Counted from the first letter of the stretch, positions 6,008 to 50,055 are shown. The stretch: DNA of 52,218 nt from Thermoplasmata archaeon (GCA_046759865.1 JBHIDB010000001.1:1-52218); one strand, 5' to 3'. Program-made: numbers and translations. The notes: generated by a model not told the origin, from the letters alone.

Positions 6008-7534
6008 ATGATCGTCCTGGACGGGGAGAGCCTAACAATCGAGAACGTCGCACGAATTGCCAGAGAGTCGCATGAGGTTCGTCTCGCGAGCTCCGCAGCG
6101 ACGAAAATGAAAGCCTCTCGCCAGTTGGTGGAGAAGATAGGCAAAGAGGGCCACATCGCATACGGGATCACGACAGGAATTGGCGAACTAGCCAATGTGA
6201 GCATCCCCGAGGATGATCTACGCCAACTGCAACAGAACATCACACGCAGTCATGCAGCGGGTTCAGGAGACCCCCTGCCTGAGGACGTGCTCCGCGCCAT
6301 GATGGTCCTTCGGGCCAATGGGCTCGCAAAGGGCCACTCGGGCGTTCGACCCCTTGTCGTCGAACTCCTCTGTCAAATGCTCAACCAAGGCGTTCACCCC
6401 TTCGTCCCCCAAAAGGGATCCGTGGGAGCAAGCGGGGACCTCGCCCCCCTTGCGCACATGACGCTTGTGTTGATCGGGGAGGGGGAGGCATCCTATCAGG
6501 GGCAGCGGCTCGCGGGACAGAGGGCCTTGGGGGAGGCAGGCCTTGAGCCTCTGGAGTTGCAGCCGAAGGAGGGCCTTGCCCTGATCAACGGAACATCTCT
6601 CATGGCCGCCTACGGTTGCCTGGCGGTCCATGACGCTCTCGCCCTGCTCAAGGATGCTTTGATCGCCGGTTCCATCAGCTTCGAAGCCCTGAAGGGTTCC
6701 CCTCGTCCCTTCGATCCCCGTATCCACGCGCTTCGACCCCATCCCGGGCAAGTGGCCACGGCCCGGGATCTCCTCCAATCCCTCGAGGATAGCGAGATCA
6801 TACCCTCCCATCTGGGTCCCCACAAGGTGCAGGACCCCTACACCCTTCGTTGTATGCCCCAGGTCTTTGGCGCCGTCTTAGACGTGATTCGGCAGGCCGA
6901 GCACGTGCTGGACGTGGAGGCGAACTCGGCCACCGACAACCCCCTCCTCTTTCCGGAGGACGGAGAGTCCCTCTCAGGCGGGAACTTCCATGGCCAGCCC
7001 CTCGCCTTCGCCATGGACTTCCTGGCCATCGCCCTGTGCTCCCTCGGAGCCTTCTCCGAGCGTCGGATTGCGCGGCTGGTCGACGGCAACCTGAGCGGGC
7101 TCCCGCCCTTCCTGACTAGGAAATCCGGCCTCCATTCCGGATTGATGCTCACCCAGTATACCGCGGCTGCCCTGGCCGCCGAGAACAAAATCCTCGCACA
7201 CCCCGCGTCCGTGGACTCCATCCCGACCTCCGCGAATCAGGAAGACTTCGTCCCCATGGGCCCGACCGCGGGGGAAAAGCTCTTCCGCATCATCGAGAAC
7301 ATGCGTACCCTCCTGGGAATCGAATACCTCTGCGCAACGCAAGGGCTGGAATTCGAGAAGGCGCTTGAGCCAGGACGCGGACCTCTGACGGCGTACCGGA
7401 TTCTCCGCCAACACGTCCCAGCCATCGAGGATGATCGGTCTCCCTCGCCGGACATCGAGGTGATCACATCCCTCCTCGTCGAGGGAAGGGTGGTGGACGC
7501 CGTTGAGAGCGAGATCGGCCCACTGCTCACCTAA
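6008..7534 (+). CDS. hutH: Histidine ammonia-lyase (MIO-dependent aromatic amino acid lyase family)
   Basis: GSVGASGDLAPLAHM contains the Ala-Ser-Gly MIO-forming triad. ITRSHAAGSG carries the Ser-His selectivity pair typical of HAL rather than PAL/TAL. Confidence 0.85.
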   Translation: MIVLDGESLTIENVARIARESHEVRLASSAATKMKASRQLVEKIGKEGHIAYGITTGIGELANVSIPEDDLRQLQQNITRSHAAGSGDPLPEDVLRAMMVLRANGLAKGHSGVRPLVVELLCQMLNQGVHPFVPQKGSVGASGDLAPLAHMTLVLIGEGEASYQGQRLAGQRALGEAGLEPLELQPKEGLALINGTSLMAAYGCLAVHDALALLKDALIAGSISFEALKGSPRPFDPRIHALRPHPGQVATARDLLQSLEDSEIIPSHLGPHKVQDPYTLRCMPQVFGAVLDVIRQAEHVLDVEANSATDNPLLFPEDGESLSGGNFHGQPLAFAMDFLAIALCSLGAFSERRIARLVDGNLSGLPPFLTRKSGLHSGLMLTQYTAAALAAENKILAHPASVDSIPTSANQEDFVPMGPTAGEKLFRIIENMRTLLGIEYLCATQGLEFEKALEPGRGPLTAYRILRQHVPAIEDDRSPSPDIEVITSLLVEGRVVDAVESEIGPLLT

Positions 7535-7572: not shown

Positions 7573-10500
7573 TCAGGACGCCTTTACGTTGATCTGAAAG
7601 ACGTGCTCCCAATCGTATTCCTGCTCGTCGATGAGGCGCTTGGCCTTCACCTTGACCATGACGGGAACCTCCCCCGGGGAGGGGAAGATGAGGGTGAAGG
7701 ACATGGACACCTCATCGTTGGCCCGCACGGACGCGGGCACCTCCAGGGCCTTGACCTCAAGCTCCCCGAGCACCTCGACTTCGAGGTCCTTGGCCAGCGC
7801 CTTGCTCGTGTTCCGAACCGTAAGGGTCGCCTCCACGTCTTTGCCCGAGGTGGCACCCGGTGCGCTGAGGCCCAACTCGAGGGTCGGTGAGAAGGCGTCG
7901 AGAGCGTCTCGAACCTGTTCGAGGCTCCGCTCCGCGCTCTGGAGCGCCGATGGTGGGTCGTCCTCCCGCATGACCATGGCCTGTTCCAGCGACTCCTCTG
8001 CGGCGCCTACGTCAATGCCGAACTTCTTTGCCGTGCTAATGAGCTTGCGGGACTCGGAGGTCGCGTCGAGGAAACGCTGTGCGGACTCTTCGAAGGATTG
8101 CAGGGATTCCCTGGCCTCCTGGGCCGCCCGGATGGCCGACTCGAAGCCTCTCTCCTTCAGGGCCGCTCGTGCCTCCTCGATTCGGCTACTCGCCTCTCGA
8201 ACGTCGACCCCCAGCTCGGTGGCGTGGTTTTGGGCTTCCTCAGCCTCGGTAATGATCCCTTCCACCTCCTTCTGGAGGGCGTTCTGGACCTCGACGAGGG
8301 ACCCAGAGAGCACCTGATGGGCGCTCACAAACTGGTCCTCCTCGAGGTAAGCCAGGCCCTCGGACAGGCGGTCCTCGATGCCTTCAACCTCGCAATCGAG
8401 GAGGCTGCTGAGCACGCGGGCGCTGCGGACCCGGCCGTGGAGGTCCGTGAGGTAGGTGGACACCATCCCCGACGCGTCCGTGGCCAACCGGTCGTAAGAT
8501 TCCTTCGCCCCGTCCATGTCGGCCTTCTTGGAGGCGGCCTTCGCCTCCTCGAGGATGAGGACCAGCTGGGAACAATCCAGGCCGAGGGTGTCGGCCACGT
8601 TGAAGTTTCGGAGGGCCACCTCCTCCGAGATGTGCATGATTTCGAGCTCTTCCTTGATCCGGCCGAGCTCGTCGCTTGTGTTGATGGCGACCTCGAGGGA
8701 CTTCACGTACTCGCCCGCCTCGAAGGCCTCTTCCGCCTCCTTTAGGAACTTCTGCAGGAGGTCCACCTTCGCGGGTAGGGCGTGGATGCGCTCTCGGGCC
8801 GTCTCGAGAGAGTTCTGGGCAATCTCCCGCTGTAGTCCCATCTTCTCCAGGAGCACCTCGCTCTTCATGGCGCTGGAGAGGGAATGCTGGTATTGACCCT
8901 CCGCCAACTCCTTCCAGGCCTGCTTCAAGAGGGCTTCCGCCTCCGCAGTCGCCACGCCCTCCTTCTGGGCCTTTGCGGCGGAGGCCTCGAAGCCTTTGAT
9001 CATCCGCTCGATGCTCTCCTTGCGATCCTTGGCGAGCTGGCCCATGGCCTCGCCGGTGAACTGCTTGGCCACGGAGAGGCGGCCCTCATTCAGGGCCTTC
9101 CCGGCCTTGTTCATGAGTTTCTGGGGACCGCTCACCTTGATACTCAGGGCCTGCAGGTCCGCGATAAGGGTCTCTGCCTCCTTCCGATCGAGTAGGATTT
9201 CTTCGTACGCCTCGGCCGTGACTTGCGACTGGGACAGCACCTCCACCGACTGCTCGGAGGCCTCCTTCAGGTCGCCCCCCTCGAGGCGCGCTTTGACTTC
9301 CTTGAGGGCCGCTTGGAGGTCCGCAATCTCGGGGGCAGGGACCTGCACCTTCTCGAGCATGCTCTCCGATCGGGCCACCCGGCCGTTCACGCTGTTCAAG
9401 ACACCGGCCCGGGCCTGCGCCTCCACCTCCATGGCGAGCTCCACGGCCTCCCGGAAGTCGCCGTGGTCCAGCGCGCGTTTGGACCGAGCAAGGAGACTGA
9501 TCCAGGGCTCCACATCCACTTCCTGGGCCTCGGCGAGGGCGAGGCTCTCCGCGGCGGCCTGGAGCCGGTCGTTTACATTGAGAACGCTAATTGCCTTCTC
9601 CGCCTCCGCCCGGGCGTCCCCGGCAATGTCAAGCGCCCGCTCGATTTCCCCCGCCTCGAAAGCGGTCTTGCCCTTGAGGAGGAGCTCGACCGCCCGCGTC
9701 ATGTCGACGTCCTTCTTCTTGCCTTCCGCCACGAGGACGGCCGCAGCCCCCATGGTATCCCGGACTTTCTGGAAGGCGTCCAGATGAGCCTTGGCGGAAA
9801 CGTCGCAGTTGCGAAGCTCGATCAGGCCTTGCGAGATGTCGCCACCGGTGATGGCCTGCTTGGCTGCCTTGAGAAACTCCTTCTCCTTGGTGATATCGAT
9901 GCCTGCATTACGGGCCTCGATGACCCGGGCCTTCACCTCGTCGAAGGCTCTCTGGGTCAGGTGGGCGAGCACGTCTCGGACGGACTCGACCTGTTGGAAG
10001 AGGGCAGACAGCTCCCCTTTCTCCAGGGCCTCCTTGGCGGCTAGGTGCGTTTCTCGAAGCCCGTCGATTTTCAGGTCGTGTTCCGTGGCGAGTGCTTGGG
10101 CCGCTTGAAGTCCTTCCACCGCGAGTTCCCCGAACGCCTCGGACAGGCCTCCCGCCTTCTCCTCTGCCTCCTCCATGAGCCTGGCGGCCGTTCCATAATC
10201 CCGCACGTCCAGGGTCGTCTCCACCTTGAGGAGCAGTTCGGAGACTTCCCGCGCCGCGGCCGTAGGCGGGAGGGTGTCCCTCAGCGTCTCCGCCTTCGCC
10301 CGGAAGTGGGACGTGATGCGCGCCTCCGCTGTCTGTTGCAGCCTCGTGGCTTCGGTGAGGGCCTTGCTGACCTCCTTGGACTTCAGGAGTTGGGCACACT
10401 CCTGAATCCCCGCGGTGGCCTCATCGAGGTCGAGGCCGATCTTTTCCGCGAGCGTGACGATGAATTGGACCTCGTCGAGCATCTCGGCGCACCGGTCCGA

Positions 10501-11880
10501 CCTCGCCTTCTCGAGGCCCTTTTCAACCCTTGTGACATGCGTCGCCCAGGCCTTGGTGTCGCCAGCGGCCAGCCTGCTCTTTGCCTCAGTGAGGAGGCCC
10601 TGAACGTCCGAGAGCTCCAGTCCCTGTTCGGCAAAGGAGGCGATTTCCGCCTCCAGCTGCTGGGTTCGCTCCGTGGCCTCGTCCAACTCTCCTACGAGCT
10701 TGTCCAGCTCCTCGTTCCCCTTCTCCGCGTAGTAGAGGGCGTCCGTGTGCTTGCCCTCCTGGAGTTTCGCCCGGGCCTTGTTGAAGATCTCCATGGTCGC
10801 GTCGATGTCGACGTTCATCTCTTTAGCCCGGAGGAACTTCGGCCTGGAGGCCGAGATCGTCTCGAGGACCATCTTGAATTTGGCGTTCTCCAGACCTTGG
10901 AGACCCTCCCGGAGTAGGTCGGAGGCCCGGTGGTAGTCCTCCGCCTTCGCGGCCTCCAGGGCCTCCTCCCCCAGCGCCTCGGCCTGGGTTACATCCACCC
11001 CCAGTTTTCTGGCTTCCTCGATGGGTTCCTGGAGGTTCGCCTTGCCGGACTCGAACCCCTTTTGCAGCTGCCGCTCCGCCTCGACACGGGCTTGTTTGAG
11101 GTAGTTGAAGGACTTCTGGTAGTCGCCGCCCTCCAATTCCGTCTTGGACTTCTTCAGGTACCCCTCCGCTTTGGCGATGTCCGCCTTCAGGGCCCGACCG
11201 GCCTGGAGGAGCTCCTGCACGACCTTCTCTTCGTTCTCCAGCTCGTAGCCCAGCTCTCGACCGAGGATGTCCAGGGCCTCTTCCGTGTGGCCGAGGGCGT
11301 CCTCGTGCTCCGATTCCTCCAGGGCGGAACGGGCGCGAGAGAGGAGATCCTCCACCATGGCCGTGTCTTTCTCCATGGCTTTCGCGGCGAGGATCCGCGT
11401 CTGGACGGAGGAGAAGGAGTCGGAGAGGTGCTCGTTCAAGGTCTTTTCGAGCTTCGTCCACCCGCGACGGGCGGTCTCAACGCCTTCGCGGAAGCTCCCC
11501 TTCTCCAAGGCCTCCCGGGCGCTCCCGAGGAGGGCCTCAAATTCGCTGCTGTCCACCTCCGCCCGCTGCAAGAGGGCGATGAACGACTCCGACGCCTCGA
11601 GGACGGAGTTGGCCTCTTGGAGGAAGGCCGCCTTCGCCTTGTCCTCCCCCTCTTGGGTCTTGCCGAGGGCGAGCTTGTAATCCTTCGACGCCATGGCGCT
11701 GTTGGCCTGAGACAGGAGCTCCTCCGCGTCCGTGACCCGGCAATCCACCTTCTTGGCGTCCGCGATCAGGCCGCCTAGCTGCTTGATCCGCTCGTCGGCG
11801 TGCTTTCGGTTCTCAGAGGCCTCTTTGGCCTTTTCCTCGAGCTGTCGCGACAGCTCGATGTGTTTGAGGTAGCCGCTCAA
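7573..11880 (-). CDS. Giant (1435 aa) cytoplasmic repeat protein: about 21 tandem ~62-aa alpha-helical repeats plus a C-terminal ~100-aa beta-sandwich (CARDB-like pattern). Function unknown.
   Basis: Single uninterrupted ORF with a TTG start. Recurrent motif G-[IV]-D-[IV]-x2-A-E-x-L-L-x2-A-x2-A-L-x2-G-D-[YF]-x2-A at about 62-residue spacing. No signal peptide or TM segment. The tail LTVRNTSKALAKDLEVEVLGELEV...VSMSFTLIFPSPGEVPVMVKVKA is beta-rich. Confidence 0.85.
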   Translation of the reverse strand: MSGYLKHIELSRQLEEKAKEASENRKHADERIKQLGGLIADAKKVDCRVTDAEELLSQANSAMASKDYKLALGKTQEGEDKAKAAFLQEANSVLEASESFIALLQRAEVDSSEFEALLGSAREALEKGSFREGVETARRGWTKLEKTLNEHLSDSFSSVQTRILAAKAMEKDTAMVEDLLSRARSALEESEHEDALGHTEEALDILGRELGYELENEEKVVQELLQAGRALKADIAKAEGYLKKSKTELEGGDYQKSFNYLKQARVEAERQLQKGFESGKANLQEPIEEARKLGVDVTQAEALGEEALEAAKAEDYHRASDLLREGLQGLENAKFKMVLETISASRPKFLRAKEMNVDIDATMEIFNKARAKLQEGKHTDALYYAEKGNEELDKLVGELDEATERTQQLEAEIASFAEQGLELSDVQGLLTEAKSRLAAGDTKAWATHVTRVEKGLEKARSDRCAEMLDEVQFIVTLAEKIGLDLDEATAGIQECAQLLKSKEVSKALTEATRLQQTAEARITSHFRAKAETLRDTLPPTAAAREVSELLLKVETTLDVRDYGTAARLMEEAEEKAGGLSEAFGELAVEGLQAAQALATEHDLKIDGLRETHLAAKEALEKGELSALFQQVESVRDVLAHLTQRAFDEVKARVIEARNAGIDITKEKEFLKAAKQAITGGDISQGLIELRNCDVSAKAHLDAFQKVRDTMGAAAVLVAEGKKKDVDMTRAVELLLKGKTAFEAGEIERALDIAGDARAEAEKAISVLNVNDRLQAAAESLALAEAQEVDVEPWISLLARSKRALDHGDFREAVELAMEVEAQARAGVLNSVNGRVARSESMLEKVQVPAPEIADLQAALKEVKARLEGGDLKEASEQSVEVLSQSQVTAEAYEEILLDRKEAETLIADLQALSIKVSGPQKLMNKAGKALNEGRLSVAKQFTGEAMGQLAKDRKESIERMIKGFEASAAKAQKEGVATAEAEALLKQAWKELAEGQYQHSLSSAMKSEVLLEKMGLQREIAQNSLETARERIHALPAKVDLLQKFLKEAEEAFEAGEYVKSLEVAINTSDELGRIKEELEIMHISEEVALRNFNVADTLGLDCSQLVLILEEAKAASKKADMDGAKESYDRLATDASGMVSTYLTDLHGRVRSARVLSSLLDCEVEGIEDRLSEGLAYLEEDQFVSAHQVLSGSLVEVQNALQKEVEGIITEAEEAQNHATELGVDVREASSRIEEARAALKERGFESAIRAAQEARESLQSFEESAQRFLDATSESRKLISTAKKFGIDVGAAEESLEQAMVMREDDPPSALQSAERSLEQVRDALDAFSPTLELGLSAPGATSGKDVEATLTVRNTSKALAKDLEVEVLGELEVKALEVPASVRANDEVSMSFTLIFPSPGEVPVMVKVKAKRLIDEQEYDWEHVFQINVKAS

Positions 11881-11943
11881 AGCGTGTCCGCCCCGATGGA
11901 GTTTGCCAAGTCCTCCTGGCTTCCCCTCCCTCGTGGAGGACGC

Positions 11944-11951
11944 TATAAATA
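11944..11951 (-). promoter_or_regulatory. TATA-like element (TATTTATA on the minus strand) in the 87-nt gap between scpB and the giant repeat gene
   Basis: It is the only AT-rich octamer in the gap, about 65 nt upstream of the TTG start at 11880. Confidence 0.35.
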
Positions 11952-11967
11952 CGTTCGGCCGTCGTTA

Positions 11968-12492
11968 TCAGCTGGCCAGGTCGCCGGCGAGGTCCTGTTC
12001 TCCCACCCGCGACGCCATCAGGTGGCGGAGATCCTCACGCCCCCGGACGGCGAGTCCAAAGAACTCGGGGAACTTGCTCGTGGTGGATAGCAGGAGGGTT
12101 CGTCCGTGTGGGCGCGCGGCGATGAGTCCCCGATCGCGGAGTCGCCGGACGTGGTCGTAGGCCCGGTACCCGACCAGGGAGGCCAGATGGCTCTGCTTCA
12201 CGGGTTGGTGATAGGCAATGAGGGCCGCCGTCTTCAGGACTCCCTGGGGCAGCGTGGCCGGCGCCATGTCGGCGGTCTCCCGCTGGTACTCCCCACGAAC
12301 CTGCAGGATCCAGCGGCGCCCGCGGCGGGCCACTTCGATGGCGCTCTCTCGCTCCTCGTACTCCCTGGCAAGGAGCGTGAGCACGCGTCTCACGGTGGAA
12401 ACCGTCATTCCCGTGGCCTCCGCCAACTGCCGCTCGGTGAGGGCTCGCGCGGTGAGAAACAGGATAGCCTCCAGGAGGCCTTGCTTCCGCAT
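11968..12492 (-). CDS. scpB: Segregation and condensation protein B (SMC-ScpAB kleisin partner)
   Basis: GLLEAILFLTARALTERQLAEATG... winged-helix ScpB signature. Its start abuts the scpA stop with no gap. Confidence 0.85.
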   Translation of the reverse strand: MRKQGLLEAILFLTARALTERQLAEATGMTVSTVRRVLTLLAREYEERESAIEVARRGRRWILQVRGEYQRETADMAPATLPQGVLKTAALIAYHQPVKQSHLASLVGYRAYDHVRRLRDRGLIAARPHGRTLLLSTTSKFPEFFGLAVRGREDLRHLMASRVGEQDLAGDLAS

Positions 12493-13371
12493 CTATATGA
12501 CCTCGGAGGTGGGAATGGCCGTCGCGGCGACCTCATCGGCCTCGCGGAGGGGCCGCAGGTAAATCTCTCCATGGGGGAGGCTCTTCTGCCAGACCTCGAG
12601 CCACCCCATCTCCGCGAGGAAGAGAACGGAGAGGAACAACGTGGCACGGTCCCAGGGATTGCCGTGATTCAGATCACTCATGCTCAGGACCTCCACGTCG
12701 CTGGCCCGGATGAGGTCCCACGCCCACTGCAGGTCCTCCGCCAGGTCCTCTCGATGGAGCTTGTCGCGCAGGCCCTCCAACAGCGCCGGTGGGTCTGTGC
12801 GAGTCACGGCGACCGCCCTGGAGGTCTCGCGAAAGGCTTGATCCAGGGCATCCAGGAGATCCACGAGGCTCACGGGTCGTTGGATTTCGCGGTGGAAGCC
12901 CTCCTTCAGCGGGGGCTCCCCCCCATGGAGGATTTGATGGGTGAGGTCGACTTCTGCGGGTTCCTGATAAAACCCTGGCATGACGTCCCACCCGTCGTCG
13001 ATCTCCTCCGCGGGCGGGTTGACCGTCTCCGCCGTCGACAGGATCATCTCGGATTGGAGCTTGAGAACCGACCACGAGAGGAGGACCAGCCGTCCCGCGG
13101 CCACGAAGTTGACGGCTCCGAGTTGACGAAGTCGCCTCAGGTATTCCCGAGAGAATCGGGCGAGGTCGATGTCCCAGGGGTCAAAGGAGTCCTCAAGGAC
13201 GAGTTCGAAGGCCGTCACGACGCTATCCTCATAGCGATTTCGGGTGGGAACGACTCGTCCCTCTCGGGCCTTCTCGAGGAGTTGCATGTACCGCGCCATC
13301 TTTTCCGGCTCCTCCTCCTCCAAGGCCTGGTGGAAGAGCAGGTGACCCAGCACCGCTTCGAACCCCGACAT
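12493..13371 (-). CDS. scpA: Segregation and condensation protein A (kleisin)
   Basis: FDPWDIDLARFSREYLRRLRQL kleisin N-terminal motif. Its start overlaps the smc stop (TGATG). Confidence 0.85.
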   Translation of the reverse strand: MSGFEAVLGHLLFHQALEEEEPEKMARYMQLLEKAREGRVVPTRNRYEDSVVTAFELVLEDSFDPWDIDLARFSREYLRRLRQLGAVNFVAAGRLVLLSWSVLKLQSEMILSTAETVNPPAEEIDDGWDVMPGFYQEPAEVDLTHQILHGGEPPLKEGFHREIQRPVSLVDLLDALDQAFRETSRAVAVTRTDPPALLEGLRDKLHREDLAEDLQWAWDLIRASDVEVLSMSDLNHGNPWDRATLFLSVLFLAEMGWLEVWQKSLPHGEIYLRPLREADEVAATAIPTSEVI

Positions 13372-16300
13372 CAGGCCGCCGCCTCCACCGCCTCCGTTGA
13401 AGGGACCTCCTCCTCCAAGACCTCCTCCAGATTGACTTGCATGATTACCTTCGAGATGCCCTTGGATCCCATGGTGACCCCCACGATGTGGTCCGCCTCC
13501 TTCAGGCTCACCTTGCGAAGGGAGATCTGGACGAATTGTGCCGACCCGGCGTTTTTGTGGATCATCCGGGCCACCTTCTCAGCGTTGACCGCATCGAGGT
13601 TCTGATCGACCTCGTCGAGGAGGTAGAAGGGCGAGGGATCGTGCCGCTGCAGGGCAAAGATGAAGGCCATGGAGACGAGGCTCTTCTCGCCTCCCGACAG
13701 TGCCTCGAGGCGGTGGAATCGCTTCCCTGGGGGCCGAGCCCGGATAAGGAGACCGCCCTCGAAGGGATCCTCCTCGTTCTCCAATTCCAAACTCGCCTCC
13801 CCGCCCTCGGAGATCTCGGCATAGACGGTGGCGAAATTGGACTGAAGGGCGCGGAAGACCACCAGGAGACCCTGTTTCTTCTTCGTCTCCAGCTCCCGTA
13901 CGACGCGGAGCAGGTCCCGCCTCTCCTTCCGCATCCGTCCAAGCTCTCCTTTGAGCTCCTCGTGGCGGGTTTCCTGCGTATCGTAATCCTCCAGGGCCCG
14001 CAGGTTTACCGCGCCGATGCGGTTCAGGGCCTTCTCGCGATCGGCCACCGCGAGGTCGATTTCCTTCATGGACGGGAGGGGTTCCGCCGGCTCGCCGAAC
14101 TCCTTCGCGCGGCCCGTGGCGTCCTGGATCTGCTCTTGGAGTCCGGCAATCTGTGTTTCGAGGCCCACAAGGAAGTCTTCGGTGGTCTCATGCTTGCTCT
14201 CTGCCTTGGCGATTTCAGCCTCAAGTTGGGTCTTCTCTCGGAAGGCACGATCCCGCTCCCCCTGAACCTCCTCCGCCTGGGAGAGGGTGCTTGTCTGGAG
14301 CTTCTCGAGGGCGAGAATGTCCTTCTGGAGTTTCGCGAGGGTTTTCGTATCACCTTGGACGCGTTTTCCCGCTTCGGTCGTCTCCCTCTCGTCTCGGGCC
14401 AGCTGTGTCACCAGCTCGGCTCGTCGCTCCTCTTGGAACGCAATCTGATTCTTCAGGACCTCTCTCTCGGACTCCCGTCGGTGGCGTCCCTCTAGTAGGT
14501 TGAGCCGCTCGCCCTGGAGCTTCCGAAGCTCTTGGGTGATTCGGTCCGGCGTAATCTTCCCCATGGCGACACGGAGTTCCTTCCTGCGGCCCTTGGCGGC
14601 GGCGAGCCCTTTCTTCTCCTCCTCGAGCCGCCCCAACAGGACCTCCCGCTCCTGAGCGACCTGGTCCAGCTCCTCGGTCTTCTGCACCAGCATGGCCACC
14701 GTAGCCTCGAGGCGTGTTAGCAGCTGCCTCTTCTGACCCTTGAGGAGGGCTCGCTGGGACTTCTGGCGGTCCTCGGCCTCGCGGGACTTCTGCCGTTGCC
14801 GCTTCACCGCTTCAAGCTCCGCCTCGACCTCCTGGAGGCGGTCCTGGACCTTCTCGAGCTCCCTGGTTGCCCGTCCCACTTCACCGGCCACCCGGTCGAG
14901 GTCGCTGGCCGATCCTTTCCCGAAGCGGAGGAGGGGATCCTCCATGTGCCCGCCCACCATGGCCCCGCTGGCCTCGACGAGTTGTCCATCGAGGGTCACG
15001 AGCCGAACGCCCCCCATCAGTTTGCGGGCCTGGCCCAGGTCCTCCACGACCACCGTGTCTCCGAAGACGTACCAGAAGGCATTGCGATACGGTTCGTCGA
15101 AGGTGACGAGATCCAAGGCGAATCCCAAGGCGTCCTTCACCGCCATGAGTGCCTTGCCCCGAGGTCGACCCGGCAGCATCTTAGAGAGGGGGAGGAAGAT
15201 GGCCCGGCCGTGCTTCTTGCGCTTCAGGTGTCCGATGGCCTTCGCCGCTACCCCATCGTCCTCCACCACGATGGCCTGCAGACGGGCGCCGGCGGCCACC
15301 TGGAGTGCCCGCTCAAACTTCGCGTCCACCTGGCCGAGGTCGGCGATCGTTCCATGAATCCCGTCGAGTTTTCCGCCGTCTCGCGCCTCGAGGACGGAGG
15401 ACACGGCGCGGTTGTACCCCTTTCGAATGGTTTCGGCGGCCTCCGCCTCCGCTTTGAGGAGGCTCAGCTCGCGGGAGAGGTTCTGGACGGCGCTTTCCAA
15501 CTCGGTGGATTGGTGGAGGAGCTCCCCTCGTTCCTTCTTGAGCGCCGCTACGCGCTCCTGCAGGTGGCCGCGCTGCTTCCTTTGGCTCCGCGAACCCGAT
15601 GCCGTTTCCTTCGCTTGCCACTCCGCATCCTTGACATCGAGATCCTGGGCCTTTCGTTCCTCTAGGAGCTGCGCGAGCCACTCGTCGAGTTGGTCCCGGC
15701 GCTGGGTGAGCTTCTCCGTTTCGAGAACCAACCCTCGGCAGACCGCATCCTGCTCGTCGATCTCCTGATCGAGGGCGACGGTGGCCTTCTGGAGTTTCAG
15801 GACCCGGGCATCAGCCTCAGAAGCGCCCTTTTCCACCTTGGCAATCTGCGACTCCTTGTACGCGATCGATTCCGTGAGTCGCTGAGCCTCCTCCTCCCCC
15901 TCCCCTGCCCGTTCTCGGAGGGTCACAAGTTCGCCCTCTGCCTTCTTCTGGTCGCGTCTGATACCCGCCATCCTGGCTCGGAGTTCCTTCCCCCTCTCCT
16001 TGCCCCGCTCTATCCCGTCCTGGGCCCGAGCCTGCTCGATCCGAAGGTCATCCAGCCTCGCGCGCACCGACTGAAACTCTTCCCCGCCCTCCTCGGCGAG
16101 CCGGGCTTCGAGGGCCTGGAGTCGATCCTCTCCCGTCTTCAGGGCCTCCCGCAGTCGAACCCGCTCCTCTTCCCAACCCGCACGCTCCGCTTCGTAGCGC
16201 TGAACTTGCTCGTGGGCGGAGGCGAGCTGTCCTTCGAGGAGTTGAATCTCCTTGTGCGCCCTCTGGGCGCGGGCCGTCTCCAGCGCTCCCTGCAATTCCC

Positions 16301-16964
16301 GGTAGCGGAGCGCCCCCTCACGGTCCCGTTCGAGCTGGCGGAGCTGGCGGCGTATCTCTTTGAGGATGATCTCGATCCGGCCCAGGTCGTCCTCTACCCC
16401 CTGACGCTTGCGATCGGCCCGTTGGATATCCTCCTCGAAACGGGAGATGCCGGCGATGTCCTCGAGGACCCGACGCCGTTCCAGGGGGGTCATCTCGACG
16501 ATGCCCTGCACGTCTCCCTGCTGAACGATGTTGTAGCCCTCGGCCGAGATCCTGGAGTTCGCCAGGAGTGCGTCGAACTCCGTGAGAGTCGCCTTCCGAC
16601 CGTTCACGTAGAAATAGGAGTTGTACCCCTCCGTTACGCTCGGCGAGCGCCCCACGTAACGGGTGAGCCGGACCTCCGGGGCCTCTAGGGGAATGGCTTG
16701 GTCTTGGTTGTCGAAAACCAGGGAGACGCGGCAATGGCCCGCCGCCTTCCCTCCCTTTCCCCCGTCGTAGATGAGATCCGTGAGTCGCCCTGCCCGGATG
16801 ACCCGAGAGCTCTTGGGACCGAGGACGAAGATTACCGCGTCGCTAATGTTGCTCTTCCCGCTTCCGTTGGGTCCCGTAATGGCCGTGTAGCCCGACAGGA
16901 TGGGCAGCCGAAGGCGGCGGCCGAAGGACTTGAAGTTCTCCAGTTCGATTTCCTTCAAGAACAC
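13371..16964 (-). CDS. smc: Chromosome segregation protein SMC
   Basis: MFLKEIELENFKSFG...ITGPNGSGKSNISDAV Walker A. Long coiled coils with a central hinge (GIHGTIADLGQVDAKFERALQVAAG). C-terminal LSGGEKSLVSMAFIFAL signature and LLDEVD Walker B. Confidence 0.97.
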   Translation of the reverse strand: MFLKEIELENFKSFGRRLRLPILSGYTAITGPNGSGKSNISDAVIFVLGPKSSRVIRAGRLTDLIYDGGKGGKAAGHCRVSLVFDNQDQAIPLEAPEVRLTRYVGRSPSVTEGYNSYFYVNGRKATLTEFDALLANSRISAEGYNIVQQGDVQGIVEMTPLERRRVLEDIAGISRFEEDIQRADRKRQGVEDDLGRIEIILKEIRRQLRQLERDREGALRYRELQGALETARAQRAHKEIQLLEGQLASAHEQVQRYEAERAGWEEERVRLREALKTGEDRLQALEARLAEEGGEEFQSVRARLDDLRIEQARAQDGIERGKERGKELRARMAGIRRDQKKAEGELVTLRERAGEGEEEAQRLTESIAYKESQIAKVEKGASEADARVLKLQKATVALDQEIDEQDAVCRGLVLETEKLTQRRDQLDEWLAQLLEERKAQDLDVKDAEWQAKETASGSRSQRKQRGHLQERVAALKKERGELLHQSTELESAVQNLSRELSLLKAEAEAAETIRKGYNRAVSSVLEARDGGKLDGIHGTIADLGQVDAKFERALQVAAGARLQAIVVEDDGVAAKAIGHLKRKKHGRAIFLPLSKMLPGRPRGKALMAVKDALGFALDLVTFDEPYRNAFWYVFGDTVVVEDLGQARKLMGGVRLVTLDGQLVEASGAMVGGHMEDPLLRFGKGSASDLDRVAGEVGRATRELEKVQDRLQEVEAELEAVKRQRQKSREAEDRQKSQRALLKGQKRQLLTRLEATVAMLVQKTEELDQVAQEREVLLGRLEEEKKGLAAAKGRRKELRVAMGKITPDRITQELRKLQGERLNLLEGRHRRESEREVLKNQIAFQEERRAELVTQLARDERETTEAGKRVQGDTKTLAKLQKDILALEKLQTSTLSQAEEVQGERDRAFREKTQLEAEIAKAESKHETTEDFLVGLETQIAGLQEQIQDATGRAKEFGEPAEPLPSMKEIDLAVADREKALNRIGAVNLRALEDYDTQETRHEELKGELGRMRKERRDLLRVVRELETKKKQGLLVVFRALQSNFATVYAEISEGGEASLELENEEDPFEGGLLIRARPPGKRFHRLEALSGGEKSLVSMAFIFALQRHDPSPFYLLDEVDQNLDAVNAEKVARMIHKNAGSAQFVQISLRKVSLKEADHIVGVTMGSKGISKVIMQVNLEEVLEEEVPSTEAVEAAA

Positions 16965-17090: not shown

Positions 17091-18209
17091 TCAGGACGTC
17101 CTCTGTCCGAGGGGGCCGGGTCCCTTCGCGAGGGTTTTCCGGACCAAGGACGCAATCTGGGCGCCGCCCGTTCCGTCCCCATACGGGCTGGGCGCGGTGG
17201 GTGCGGCAGGGTCGTTCAGGAACTCCTTCATGGCAACAATCGCCTTCTGGGCGGTCGTCCCAACAACCCGTGTATACCCAGCGGCCACGGCCTCCGGCCG
17301 CTCCGTGCCCCGGCGAAAGACGAAGACCTTCTTCCGGAGGGCAGGCGACGTCGCCTCCTCTTGAATGCCTCCCGAGTCCGTGAGGATGCAGGTCGAGCGC
17401 TTCATCAAGACCAGGAAGTCGAAGTAACCCTGGGGGGGCAGGAGCTGGACGTTCTGTGACGCCTGCAGCTTCTCGTAGAGCCCTGCGTCCTCCAACCGGC
17501 CCTCCGCTCGGGGGTGTACGGGGTAGACCACGGGAAGCGGAGCCCGCCGAAGCAGATCGACGAGTTCCCCGAGGGTCTCCAGGTCATCGACGTTCTCGGC
17601 CCGGTGCGCGGTCACGAGGCAGAACCGGTCGAAGGGGACGAGGTCCATCACGTTCGACCGCGCCTCCGCCAGCGGAAGATAGCGGATCGTGGCGTCGATG
17701 ACGGTGTTGCCCGTGATCCAGATGGTGCCCCAGACGGCTTCCTGGCGCAGATTCTTGGCCGCGACGTCCGTGGGGGCGTAGAGGAAGGAAGAGAGGTGGT
17801 CGGTCAACCGTCGATTGTGCTCCTCCGGCATTCGAAGGTCATGGCTCCGGAGGCCCGCCTCCACGTGCCCCACGTCCACCCCGAGCTTCGCGCCGGCCAG
17901 TGCGGCCGCCAGGACCGTGTTCGTGTCCCCTTCGACCAGGATGAGTCGGGGAGGGTCCTGGGCGAAATGCGCCTCCAGGTGGATGAGGGCCTCGGCCGTC
18001 TGTTTCGCCTGCGTTCCCGAGCCCACGTCGAGCACGGCATCCGGGGAGCCAAGCCCGAGCTCTTCGAGGAAGACCCTGGACAACTCCTGGTCGTAATGTT
18101 GGCCGGTGTGAACCAGGGAGAATGGGATGCCCTCCTCCCGCAGCGCGAGGACGATCGGCGCCATTTTCACGATCTCAGGCCGGGTCCCCACGACGACGGA
18201 GAGGTCCAC
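17091..18209 (-). CDS. wecB: UDP-N-acetylglucosamine 2-epimerase (non-hydrolysing)
   Basis: VVVGTRPEIVKMAPIV...HTGQHYD...GDTNTVLAAALAA...HVEAGLRS motifs. Start set at the GTG at 18209; the track ORF extends to 18971 but that part is antisense to the GT2 gene at 18324-19112. Confidence 0.85.
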   Translation of the reverse strand: MDLSVVVGTRPEIVKMAPIVLALREEGIPFSLVHTGQHYDQELSRVFLEELGLGSPDAVLDVGSGTQAKQTAEALIHLEAHFAQDPPRLILVEGDTNTVLAAALAGAKLGVDVGHVEAGLRSHDLRMPEEHNRRLTDHLSSFLYAPTDVAAKNLRQEAVWGTIWITGNTVIDATIRYLPLAEARSNVMDLVPFDRFCLVTAHRAENVDDLETLGELVDLLRRAPLPVVYPVHPRAEGRLEDAGLYEKLQASQNVQLLPPQGYFDFLVLMKRSTCILTDSGGIQEEATSPALRKKVFVFRRGTERPEAVAAGYTRVVGTTAQKAIVAMKEFLNDPAAPTAPSPYGDGTGGAQIASLVRKTLAKGPGPLGQRTS

Positions 18210-18323
18210 GGGGGCCGGACCAGGGTCCCATCGGATAAAGCCTCCCTCACGGGTCCGGGCCCGATTCTCAGGCGCGGGAAAGGCAGAGGAAAGGTCATAT
18301 CGCGCCTCGGGCTCTGAGAGGCC

Positions 18324-19112
18324 GTGCTCGTCAGCGTCTTGGTGACCGCACGGAACGAGGAGCACAACATCGCGGACCTCCTCGACAGCCTCGTGACCCA
18401 GGAGGCACCCCTGGAAGTCATCGTGGTGGACTCGAACAGCGAGGACGGGACGCGAGACATCGTGGGCGAGTACGCGGCGCGTTACGGCTTCATCCGGCTG
18501 GCGCACCACGGCGGGACCCGCGGGGAGAGCCGCAACCACGGCATCCGCATGGCCGGCGGCGATGCGGTGGCTTTCATCGACGCCGACTGCATCGCGAACC
18601 CTTTCTGGCTGAAGTACATCCGGGAAGGGCTGGAACGGTCCGCCGTGGTGGCCGGGCGGACCATCCAGATCGGATACCGGCCCTTCGAGGAGCTGGAGCG
18701 GGTCGAGCTTATCTACCGGGGATCCGACATCACCTACCCGAGTGCCAACCTCGCCTATCGCGTCGATGCCCTCCGAGGGATCCAAGGCTTCGACGCCTGG
18801 TTCATCACGGCGGAGGACATCGACATGAACCTCCGGGCGGTGAAGGGGGGGCATTCGATCTACCACGAACCCCGGGCCATCGTGTATCACCGCACTCGGG
18901 GCTCGGTCTACGACTTCTTCCGCCAGGCCTTCTGGAACGGCGCAGGACGTAAGCAGCTGACGCTGAAGCACGGCAGCCTCTGGAGCCGCTACAGTCCCCT
19001 GGAGATGGCCCGTCGCCGCATGACCTTCTGGGCCCTCGGCCGCCTCGTCCTGGCGGTGTTGGGGTACGTGGGCTACAAGTTCTTTGGGGAGCCCCCCTCC
19101 CCGCCTGGATAA
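18324..19112 (+). CDS. Family 2 glycosyltransferase
   Basis: VLVTARNEEHNIADLLDSLVTQ...VIVVDSNSEDGT and FIDADC (DxD). GTG start, divergent from wecB. Confidence 0.8.
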   Translation: MLVSVLVTARNEEHNIADLLDSLVTQEAPLEVIVVDSNSEDGTRDIVGEYAARYGFIRLAHHGGTRGESRNHGIRMAGGDAVAFIDADCIANPFWLKYIREGLERSAVVAGRTIQIGYRPFEELERVELIYRGSDITYPSANLAYRVDALRGIQGFDAWFITAEDIDMNLRAVKGGHSIYHEPRAIVYHRTRGSVYDFFRQAFWNGAGRKQLTLKHGSLWSRYSPLEMARRRMTFWALGRLVLAVLGYVGYKFFGEPPSPPG

Positions 19113-49933: not shown

Positions 49934-50055
49934 TGGACCGGGTGGGATTTGAACCCACGGCCTCCACCATGTTGGGGGAAGGGCCAGAAGTGGTCTTTCT
50001 AACTCCCGGCCTTCCTCATGCCAAGGTGGCGATCTTCCAACTGATCTACCGGCCC
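49934..50055 (-). tRNA. tRNA-Ala (anticodon GGC) with a 49-nt intron after position 37; CCA not encoded
   Basis: Hand-folded. Acceptor GGGCCGG/CCGGTCC (G3:U70 present), D-arm GATC/GATC, anticodon stem CCACC/GGTGG with loop TTGGCA|intron|T, T-arm GTGGG-TTCAAAT-CCCAC. The intron is about 50018-49970; the boundary is ambiguous by the shared CATG. Confidence 0.88.

Follow-up and report, generated by a model that had tools for sequence, protein, structure and literature searches.

The 52,218-nt stretch of DNA analyzed here (the window; GCA_046759865.1 JBHIDB010000001.1:1-52218) is a contig of an uncultured Thermoplasmata archaeon and contains on its minus strand a large gene (7573..11880), which lies directly downstream of smc, scpA, and scpB and is convergent with hutH. 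The open reading frame (ORF) encodes 1435 amino acids plus the stop codon and comprises a cap helix, 21 helical units, and a β-sandwich. An uninterrupted minus-strand ORF of this size, 87 nt downstream of scpB and on the same strand as smc-scpA-scpB, had been described in an earlier note on this DNA, and both statements are upheld. The start codon is TTG, which is backed by about 30 orthologous loci with GTG or TTG starts and a conserved N-terminus ([M/V/L]SGYL, SGYL(R/K)xxxL). A protein with 100% identity (P0001; related proteins and loci are designated P and L, respectively) is recorded as hypothetical protein of a Thermoplasmata metagenome-assembled genome (MAG). The window protein has an isoelectric point (pI) of 4.84 and a net charge of -88. 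Transmembrane or signal-like segments are absent from it, the peak 19-residue Kyte-Doolittle hydropathy being 1.19, which bears out the earlier statement that there is neither a signal peptide nor a transmembrane helix. Scans of the full protein with Pfam, NCBIfam, and PADLOC yielded no usable family, the single match being a sub-threshold one to the NCBIfam model SAXB; a marginal YfdX match was obtained for one orthologue. Literature searches turned up no previous account of this gene, nor of any fourth gene in an archaeal smc operon. The gene product and its orthologues form a family that is new and has no name; its members are cytoplasmic, acidic, and constant in length, with 21 units derived from the tetratricopeptide repeat (TPR), an Ig-like terminal domain, and commonly a RING-like finger. 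With a probability of roughly 0.6, the protein is a cytoplasmic, strongly acidic scaffold rod of fixed length.

The array of 21 units of about 62 residues occupies amino acids 32-1335 (7876..11787, minus strand) and is delineated by autocorrelation, by the register of a hidden Markov model (HMM), by AlphaFold2 (AF2) modeling, and by covariation. In the BLOSUM62 autocorrelation, evaluated against 100 shuffles, the periodicity at lag 62 has a z value of 9.2 and the harmonic at lag 124 one of 3.5. The iterated HMM places 21 units with starts at amino acids 32, 94, 156, and so on to 1274, at a spacing of 58-64 residues, and reaches to about amino acid 1335. The earlier note had counted about 21 units of about 62 residues and had placed their anchors by hand; both agree with the HMM register, and the repeat motif proposed there matches the family consensus ..LGaDVxEAExLLxxAxxALExGDfExA... 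Each unit consists of a G-x-D loop of five residues, a helix of 15, a G-D-[YF] turn of three, and a second helix of about 39 residues, which runs into the next unit. The AF2 model, which covers amino acids 1-405 and was built on an alignment of 23 orthologues, is all-helical, with a strict alternation of 15- and 39-residue helices and a mean predicted local distance difference test (pLDDT) score of 89.1.

Covariation was analyzed by mean-field direct coupling analysis on 651 ungapped two-unit windows (124 residues) from 76 orthologues, corresponding to an effective number of 476. The final 16 residues of the preceding long helix (A) are coupled in antiparallel fashion to the short helix (B; pairs 15-25, 11-21, 8-32, and 5-32), and helix B in turn is coupled, again antiparallel, to the first approximately 18 residues of the next long helix (C; pairs 30-46, 23-53, and 28-49). 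Between A and C the couplings are parallel, with an offset of about 40 (14-54, 7-51, and 3-44), and loop residue 19 is coupled to residue 57. The majority of the strongest couplings recur in both unit copies of the two-unit window. From the A-B, B-C, and A-C couplings it follows that the unit would be a short three-helix bundle, the third helix of which runs into the first helix of the next bundle. The AF2 model and the independent covariation analysis thus agree on the predicted architecture, namely short three-helix bundles joined via continuous helices in a spectrin-like connectivity.

Between units of the window protein the identity is only 16.8%, yet every unit possesses a set of residues of its own that do not vary among orthologues. 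This makes the array an ancient, position-specific one and not a homogenized repeat. In the orthologue alignment, the invariant residues gather in stations, which are found at the N-terminal cap, at units R2-R3, R6, R12, R16-17, and R21, and in the β-domain. According to the conservation map of alignment A1, the most conserved station spans units R2-R3 (amino acids 148-191, LNEHLSDSFSSVQ...EDLLSRARSALE; 11308..11439, minus strand); many invariant residues fall within it, and it may be a surface to which partners bind. Another station of the conservation map lies at the R5/R6 junction (amino acids 335-352, FKMVLETISASRPKFLRA; 10825..10878, minus strand) and matches predicted interruptions of the long helices. 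DSSP assignment of the AF2 model shows these interruptions at residues 277-284 and 343-346. Since they fall together with a conserved segment (FKMVLETISASRPKF), the rod may have fixed kinks near units 5-6. The N-terminal cap (amino acids 1-31; 11788..11880, minus strand), with the motif SGYLxxxxLxxQLEEKAKE, is the opening part of the first long helix, which in the AF2 model extends across residues 2-44; its mean column conservation of 0.69 is the highest value among all segments.

In the earlier note the repeat had not been recognized as a named family, and this holds: no Pfam model matches it, and no TPR model matches the window protein at E <= 0.01. What had been overlooked is the TPR-like character of the sequence. 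One 34-residue TPR motif corresponds to unit positions 13-49, which cover the loop, the short helix, the G-D-Y turn, and the beginning of the long helix, and consensus TPR (CTPR) designs (PDB 9qhb and 8bu0) are matched by the family profile at E = 1e-13 and by the unit profile at a summed E = 9e-13, where each single-repeat match is insignificant on its own (i-Evalue of 24 or more). In the JGI annotation, two family members are labeled as TPR repeat proteins, and Pfam scans of orthologues give sub-threshold TPR_16 or ANAPC3 matches. The unit differs from the TPR in its period (62 versus 34 residues) and in the length of its second helix (about 39 versus about 14 residues), and because of this long helix the units would stack end-on and not side by side. 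Accordingly different is the packing: the right-handed TPR superhelix, in which helices of equal length lie side by side, is not reproduced (Foldseek template modeling (TM) scores of 0.10-0.14). We read the unit as a TPR-like hairpin whose B helix was lengthened by about 25 residues, whereby a solenoid-forming motif would have been turned into a rod-forming one; the helix extension would show a route from a TPR-like solenoid unit to a rod unit.

With spectrin and EzrA the array shares the topology of an elongated modular rod, in which three-helix bundles are linked by a helix that is continuous into the next bundle. The unit is much shorter (62 amino acids versus about 106 in spectrin) and the bundles are just about 15 residues tall. 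Neither Pfam nor PDB-sequence nor Foldseek searches gave a match to spectrin, α-actinin, or EzrA. In bacteria, division is regulated by EzrA, a rod built from three-helix-bundle repeats (PMC4243239).

Because the two helices of the unit are unequal (39 versus 15 residues) and successive long helices overlap over only about 16-18 residues, the advance per unit would be about 22 residues (about 3.3 nm), and the 21-unit array would form a rod of about 65-70 nm. Its length is a family trait. Nearly all complete members have 1435 or 1490-1517 amino acids, although identities are as low as 26-32%, and in every full-length member the array extends from residue 35 to residue 1325, approximately, equal to 20.8 x 62 residues; therefore, the count of 21 units is invariant in full-length orthologues. 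With identity falling to 26% and the number of units frozen at 21, the family is a clear case from nature which argues that length itself is under selection, as in a molecular ruler or spacer. The structural proposal of the earlier note, a long cytoplasmic helical rod with a globular β-tip, holds in the light of the AF2 models, covariation, and hydropathy. In such a scaffold, the rod would serve as a spacer or tether of defined length, the unit-specific conserved stations (N-terminal cap, R2-R3, R6, R12, R16-17, and R21) would be docking sites on it, and the Ig-like domain at its end would act as an adaptor, together with the RING-like zinc finger in most orthologues.

Several points weigh against a scaffold rod. 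Straightness and length of the rod are deduced from helix lengths and covariation only. A Foldseek search of PDB with the six-unit model gave nothing significant (best E = 0.02, TM scores of 0.10-0.17), so that no known rod confirms the predicted shape. Besides, a scaffold or tether role is a generic proposal for repeat proteins.

The indexed search returned 99 clusters, nearly all of them from Thermoplasmata MAGs, and cultured organisms yielded no family member. Compared between loci, the large protein retains 26-30% identity, in comparison to 44-48% for SMC, 37-46% for ScpA and ScpB, and 56-58% for HutH, and thus evolves faster than the products of the neighboring genes. In an exhaustive profile search, 1189 representative proteins were found at E <= 1e-3 and 242 at E <= 1e-30; a single-unit profile search of the indexed protein database recovered merely two fragments. 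More than 1000 representative proteins thus make up the superfamily defined by this repeat, for which there is no Pfam model; giants of about 7000 amino acids are among them. Proteins of 3000-7700 amino acids (the largest with 7686) are made of the same unit of about 62 residues, and in more remote relatives the array counts about 18, 28, or 31 units and the C-terminus bears other additions, for example CARDB plus DUF5915. Among the giants (P0114, P0122) are proteins of 7274 and 7686 amino acids, and P0114 ends with a CxxC...CxxC zinc ribbon. At L040 (10001-17158), the same unit, of about 62-66 residues, occurs in proteins of 2300-2400 amino acids with a CARDB domain in the middle of the protein and a C-terminal DUF5915, adjoining a FEN1-like gene; at L042 (10001-14500), it is also present in 1500-amino acid proteins after an IF5A gene. 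Some members of the core family are disrupted. At L027 (8018-10000), about 1.9 kb are inserted between scpB and the large gene, the frame of which is broken; L021 and L033 have early frame breaks, and L005 contains a run of N. These cases, together with L027, may be pseudogenes or assembly errors. The contig L025 (VAYX01000188.1), which carries the large gene and hutH, is filed as an "Actinobacteria bacterium" MAG and is probably mis-binned.

At the C-terminus, amino acids 1336-1435, approximately (7576..7875, minus strand), form a predicted Ig-like, CARDB-like β-sandwich. It was modeled by AF2 on the last 288 residues of P0010, the closest orthologue that retains an extra tail, with 47% identity over the region. 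The model (pLDDT 91.2) contains two units, a seven-stranded β-sandwich, a short flexible linker, and a small ββα zinc module. Foldseek matches of the sandwich include the adaptin/GGA ear, TRAP-β, PapD/ASH-like, and NBR1 FW domains, with E values of 2e-5 to 1e-3 and target TM scores of 0.5-0.6; Foldseek comparisons of the predicted models, as the earlier note had suggested them, thus gave Ig-like matches for the C-terminal domain and no significant match for the repeat units. The window domain alone scores 21.4 bits with Pfam CARDB (PF07705) versus a cutoff of 22.7 bits (E = 2.9e-4; 83 of 101 positions covered). CARDB matches were obtained for seven of 12 orthologues at E <= 0.1, the best one at 2.2e-5, and the distant relative P0089 passes the cutoff with 33.6 bits. 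The final 100 residues had been assigned to an all-β CARDB/Ig-like fold before, which is in line with the seven-stranded sandwich, given a CARDB score that is borderline. With Ig-like adaptor domains (adaptin/GGA ear, TRAP-β, and PapD/ASH-like) the domain shares the seven strands and the size of about 100 amino acids. It differs from typical CARDB proteins, which are found at the cell surface, in its cytoplasmic location at the end of a helical rod, and its score lies just under the cutoff.

Most orthologues, in addition, carry a C-terminal C4HC3 module, which the earlier note had overlooked. Its pattern is C-x2-C-x12-C-x-C-x4-H-x2-C-x6-C-x2-C, and the seven Cys and the one His are all invariant. 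In this orthologue module, all eight ligands align in a cross-brace pattern with the RING-H2 domains of RNF165/ARK2C (E = 1.9e-7) and Arkadia. Pfam Prok-RING_1 (PF14446) is matched by all 20 members tested, with individual scores mostly under the curated cutoff. The hydrophobic residue between the first two Cys (C-P-[ILV]-C) is conserved, as in RINGs that bind the ubiquitin-conjugating enzyme E2. A RING-type E3-like ligase, or an adaptor, of a ubiquitin-like (SAMP) pathway, for which the rod would recruit substrates, is suggested by these similarities. Against it stand the differences from RING-H2: C4HC3 instead of C3H2C3 ligands and a shorter loop 2/helix region, in which the helix that bears the E2-contact Trp in RING-H2 is shortened by four residues and a conserved Trp is lacking. 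More importantly, the module is absent from the window protein, which stops right after the β-domain and thus has none of the eight ligands, from the rest of the 1435-amino acid subclade (including P0003 and P0007), and from P0076 and P0083 (alignment A3). Relocation of the finger to a separate gene was considered and rejected, as a scan of the window found no RING copy elsewhere. From these absences it follows that the RING is dispensable for the core function; it would be an ancestral or widespread accessory, apparently lost in the clade of the window. A ligase function for the family is, on balance, quite improbable. The RING-like finger adds to the few archaeal examples known outside the Asgard and Aigarchaeota lineages. 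A profile search with the β-sandwich plus RING returned fragments of the same family only, so that no alternative architectures emerged. In the clade of L008, L011, L029, L031, and L036 (about 1505-1507 amino acids), the RING finger is extended by a basic tail (...DKK(R/K)KLxFxVG).

The genes upstream of the large gene are all on the minus strand. smc (13371-16964) is assigned by TIGR02169 with 882 bits, and scpB (11968-12492) by Pfam SMC_ScpB at 1.8e-31. scpA (12493-13371), which encodes 292 amino acids, has no Pfam match; its orthologue profile matches PDB ScpA 6ivh at 6.7e-10 and, in addition, the C-terminal winged-helix domains 5xns and 4i99 at 2e-3. A defense-type SMC system (Wadjet, Lamassu) was ruled out, since PADLOC gave no match for the large protein, ScpA, or ScpB, and since the SMC protein reaches 882 bits with the housekeeping model TIGR02169 versus at most 158 bits with defense ATPases.

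The family usually sits directly downstream of smc-scpA-scpB. Among 39 species-representative loci, each one with sufficient upstream sequence has smc, scpA, scpB, and the large gene in this order on a single strand. The order recurs in the extra clades sampled via P0021, P0022, and P0029, so that it is documented in about 30 genomes at the species level, with every sampled core clade represented. Relatives at SMC identities of just 44-48% still preserve it. Counterparts of window genes outside the five-gene block from smc to hutH are rare or absent at more distant loci. Such conservation may point to an accessory protein dedicated to archaeal Smc-ScpAB condensin, be it a subunit, a loader, or a tether, which would bind via the conserved stations and whose Ig-like plus RING end would connect the complex to a further partner, such as chromatin, membrane, or division machinery; in eukaryotic SMC complexes, this role belongs to helical-repeat and RING subunits. 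Also consistent with this possibility are the majority of the scpB-large gene intergenic regions examined, which are devoid of an oligo-T run, and the charges of the partners, ScpB being basic (pI 10.6) and the rod very acidic. For archaeal Smc-ScpAB, neither the partners nor the mode of loading, positioning, and regulation are known; ParB, the loader in bacteria, does not serve this purpose in archaea, and no equivalent has been identified there (PMC11840125, PMC7055376). A conserved gene right after smc-scpA-scpB, present across many uncultured Thermoplasmata, is a concrete candidate for this question.

A number of observations speak against the link to smc. The large gene has a promoter of its own: a BRE/TATA-like element (cgaacgtaTTTATA; 11944..11957, minus strand) follows 11 nt after the scpB stop codon, with TTTATA at 11944-11949, 64-69 nt before the TTG. 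A TATA-like element had been noted there before, and it is indeed present; the BRE/TATA element is located 68-87 nt before the start, a position conserved in 23 of 23 aligned loci. Furthermore, family members exist elsewhere. Upstream of the full-length, divergent P0076 and P0079, no smc occurs over 5.5-7.6 kb, and P0083 is preceded by a KEOPS CGI-121 gene instead of smc; in the family tree, these three have the longest branches. Still more distant repeat proteins are likewise unlinked to smc. Several flanking families recur between other clades, which means that the wider gene order is partly conserved, and hutH is conserved about as widely as the adjacency to smc, also beside P0076 and P0083. 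A rod matching the SMC arm in length was considered but is not supported by the estimate of about 65-70 nm versus about 47-50 nm for the arm (PMC5344682). Finally, the smc-scpA-scpB operon is general in Methanomassiliicoccales (PMC7055376) and, hence, does not depend on the large gene.

The leader between promoter and start codon (11881..11943, minus strand) is GC-rich and partly self-complementary. In most other clades, a Shine-Dalgarno-like GGAG motif is found 8-12 nt ahead of the start. A leader hairpin is possible in most clades, followed by GGAG (alignment A8); in the soil clade it would be formed by CCTCGGAGGAGGAGCC...CCCCGAGG. The hairpin sequence varies between clades with self-complementarity being kept, and may represent a structured regulatory 5' leader.

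The gene's own promoter and the members away from smc would equally suit an element of cell architecture that is independent of condensin, such as a rod resembling spectrin or EzrA that lies beneath the membrane or at the site of division, for which the adjacency to smc would be inherited gene order only. Such a cytoskeleton-like element would be in keeping with the spectrin-like bundle connectivity, with the fixed length, with the giants of 3000-7700 amino acids in the superfamily, which look like structural proteins, and with EzrA as bacterial precedent. It is rather doubtful, given that no membrane-binding, polymerization, or cytoskeleton-binding domain was detected in the scans of the window protein and that the adjacency to smc is retained across deep divergence.

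hutH (6008..7534, plus strand), which encodes histidine ammonia-lyase, is the most persistent neighbor of the large gene; it adjoins it in most core clades and also beside P0076 and P0083, which are away from smc. A functional tie to histidine catabolism might be read from this persistence. The distant relative P0085 adjoins genes of the same catabolic pathway: at L046 (11424-13541), convergent genes for formiminotransferase-cyclodeaminase (FTCD) follow it, which may be a remnant of ancestral gene order or coincidence. The arrangement of the convergent genes, however, offers another explanation. In the window the stop codon of hutH is separated by 38 nt from that of the large gene (37 nt in L002), and in 22 of 28 loci there is either no gap between the two stop codons or a 4-nt overlap. 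The 3' ends of the transcripts must, therefore, overlap, so that the gene pair is physically locked, and because of this lock the persistence of hutH is probably explained without shared function. Moreover, hutH is replaced in the P0021 clade, lies 0.5-4 kb away in L003, L004, and L006, and offers no apparent biochemical rationale, which renders a role in histidine catabolism highly improbable. As there is no such lock at the scpB junction, the weight of the adjacency to smc is modestly restored. The smc order is kept even in the P0021 clade, where hutH is lost.

The earlier note had named a lack of synteny in relatives as grounds for rejecting its proposal, a partner of condensin or a cytoskeleton-like element; the order is instead kept in relatives of all sampled core clades. 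The functional part is not established and is weakened by the promoter, by the unlinked divergent members, and by hutH. We regard a functional link to Smc-ScpAB, and with it the accessory subunit, as tentative, the odds being somewhat against it. In eukaryotes, SMC complexes contain helical-repeat and RING subunits, namely, the HEAT "hawks" and Nse1 and Nse2 of Smc5/6. Similar features in the archaeal family are a large helical-repeat protein, a RING-type finger in most orthologues, and a gene beside those for SMC, kleisin, and kite proteins. On the other hand, no homology was detected, the repeat is of another type, and the association with SMC follows here from gene order alone, which makes this an analogy and not a membership. 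That the protein is a fourth component of Smc-ScpAB, a fixed-length helical-repeat tether, with a RING in most lineages, that positions or regulates condensin, is unlikely; if true, prokaryotes would have a functional counterpart to the accessory subunits, helical-repeat and RING, of the eukaryotic complexes.

Two further observations concern other parts of the window. The WecB-like ORF at 17091-18971 (minus strand) encodes 626 amino acids, of which only residues 256-611, approximately, correspond to the UDP-GlcNAc 2-epimerase domain; either the first 255 residues, approximately, constitute a region with no Pfam or NCBIfam match, or the listed start is too far upstream. At 49934-50055 (minus strand), Rfam identifies a 122-nt tRNA match (55.6 bits), which was not called by ARAGORN and is consistent with an intron-containing archaeal tRNA.

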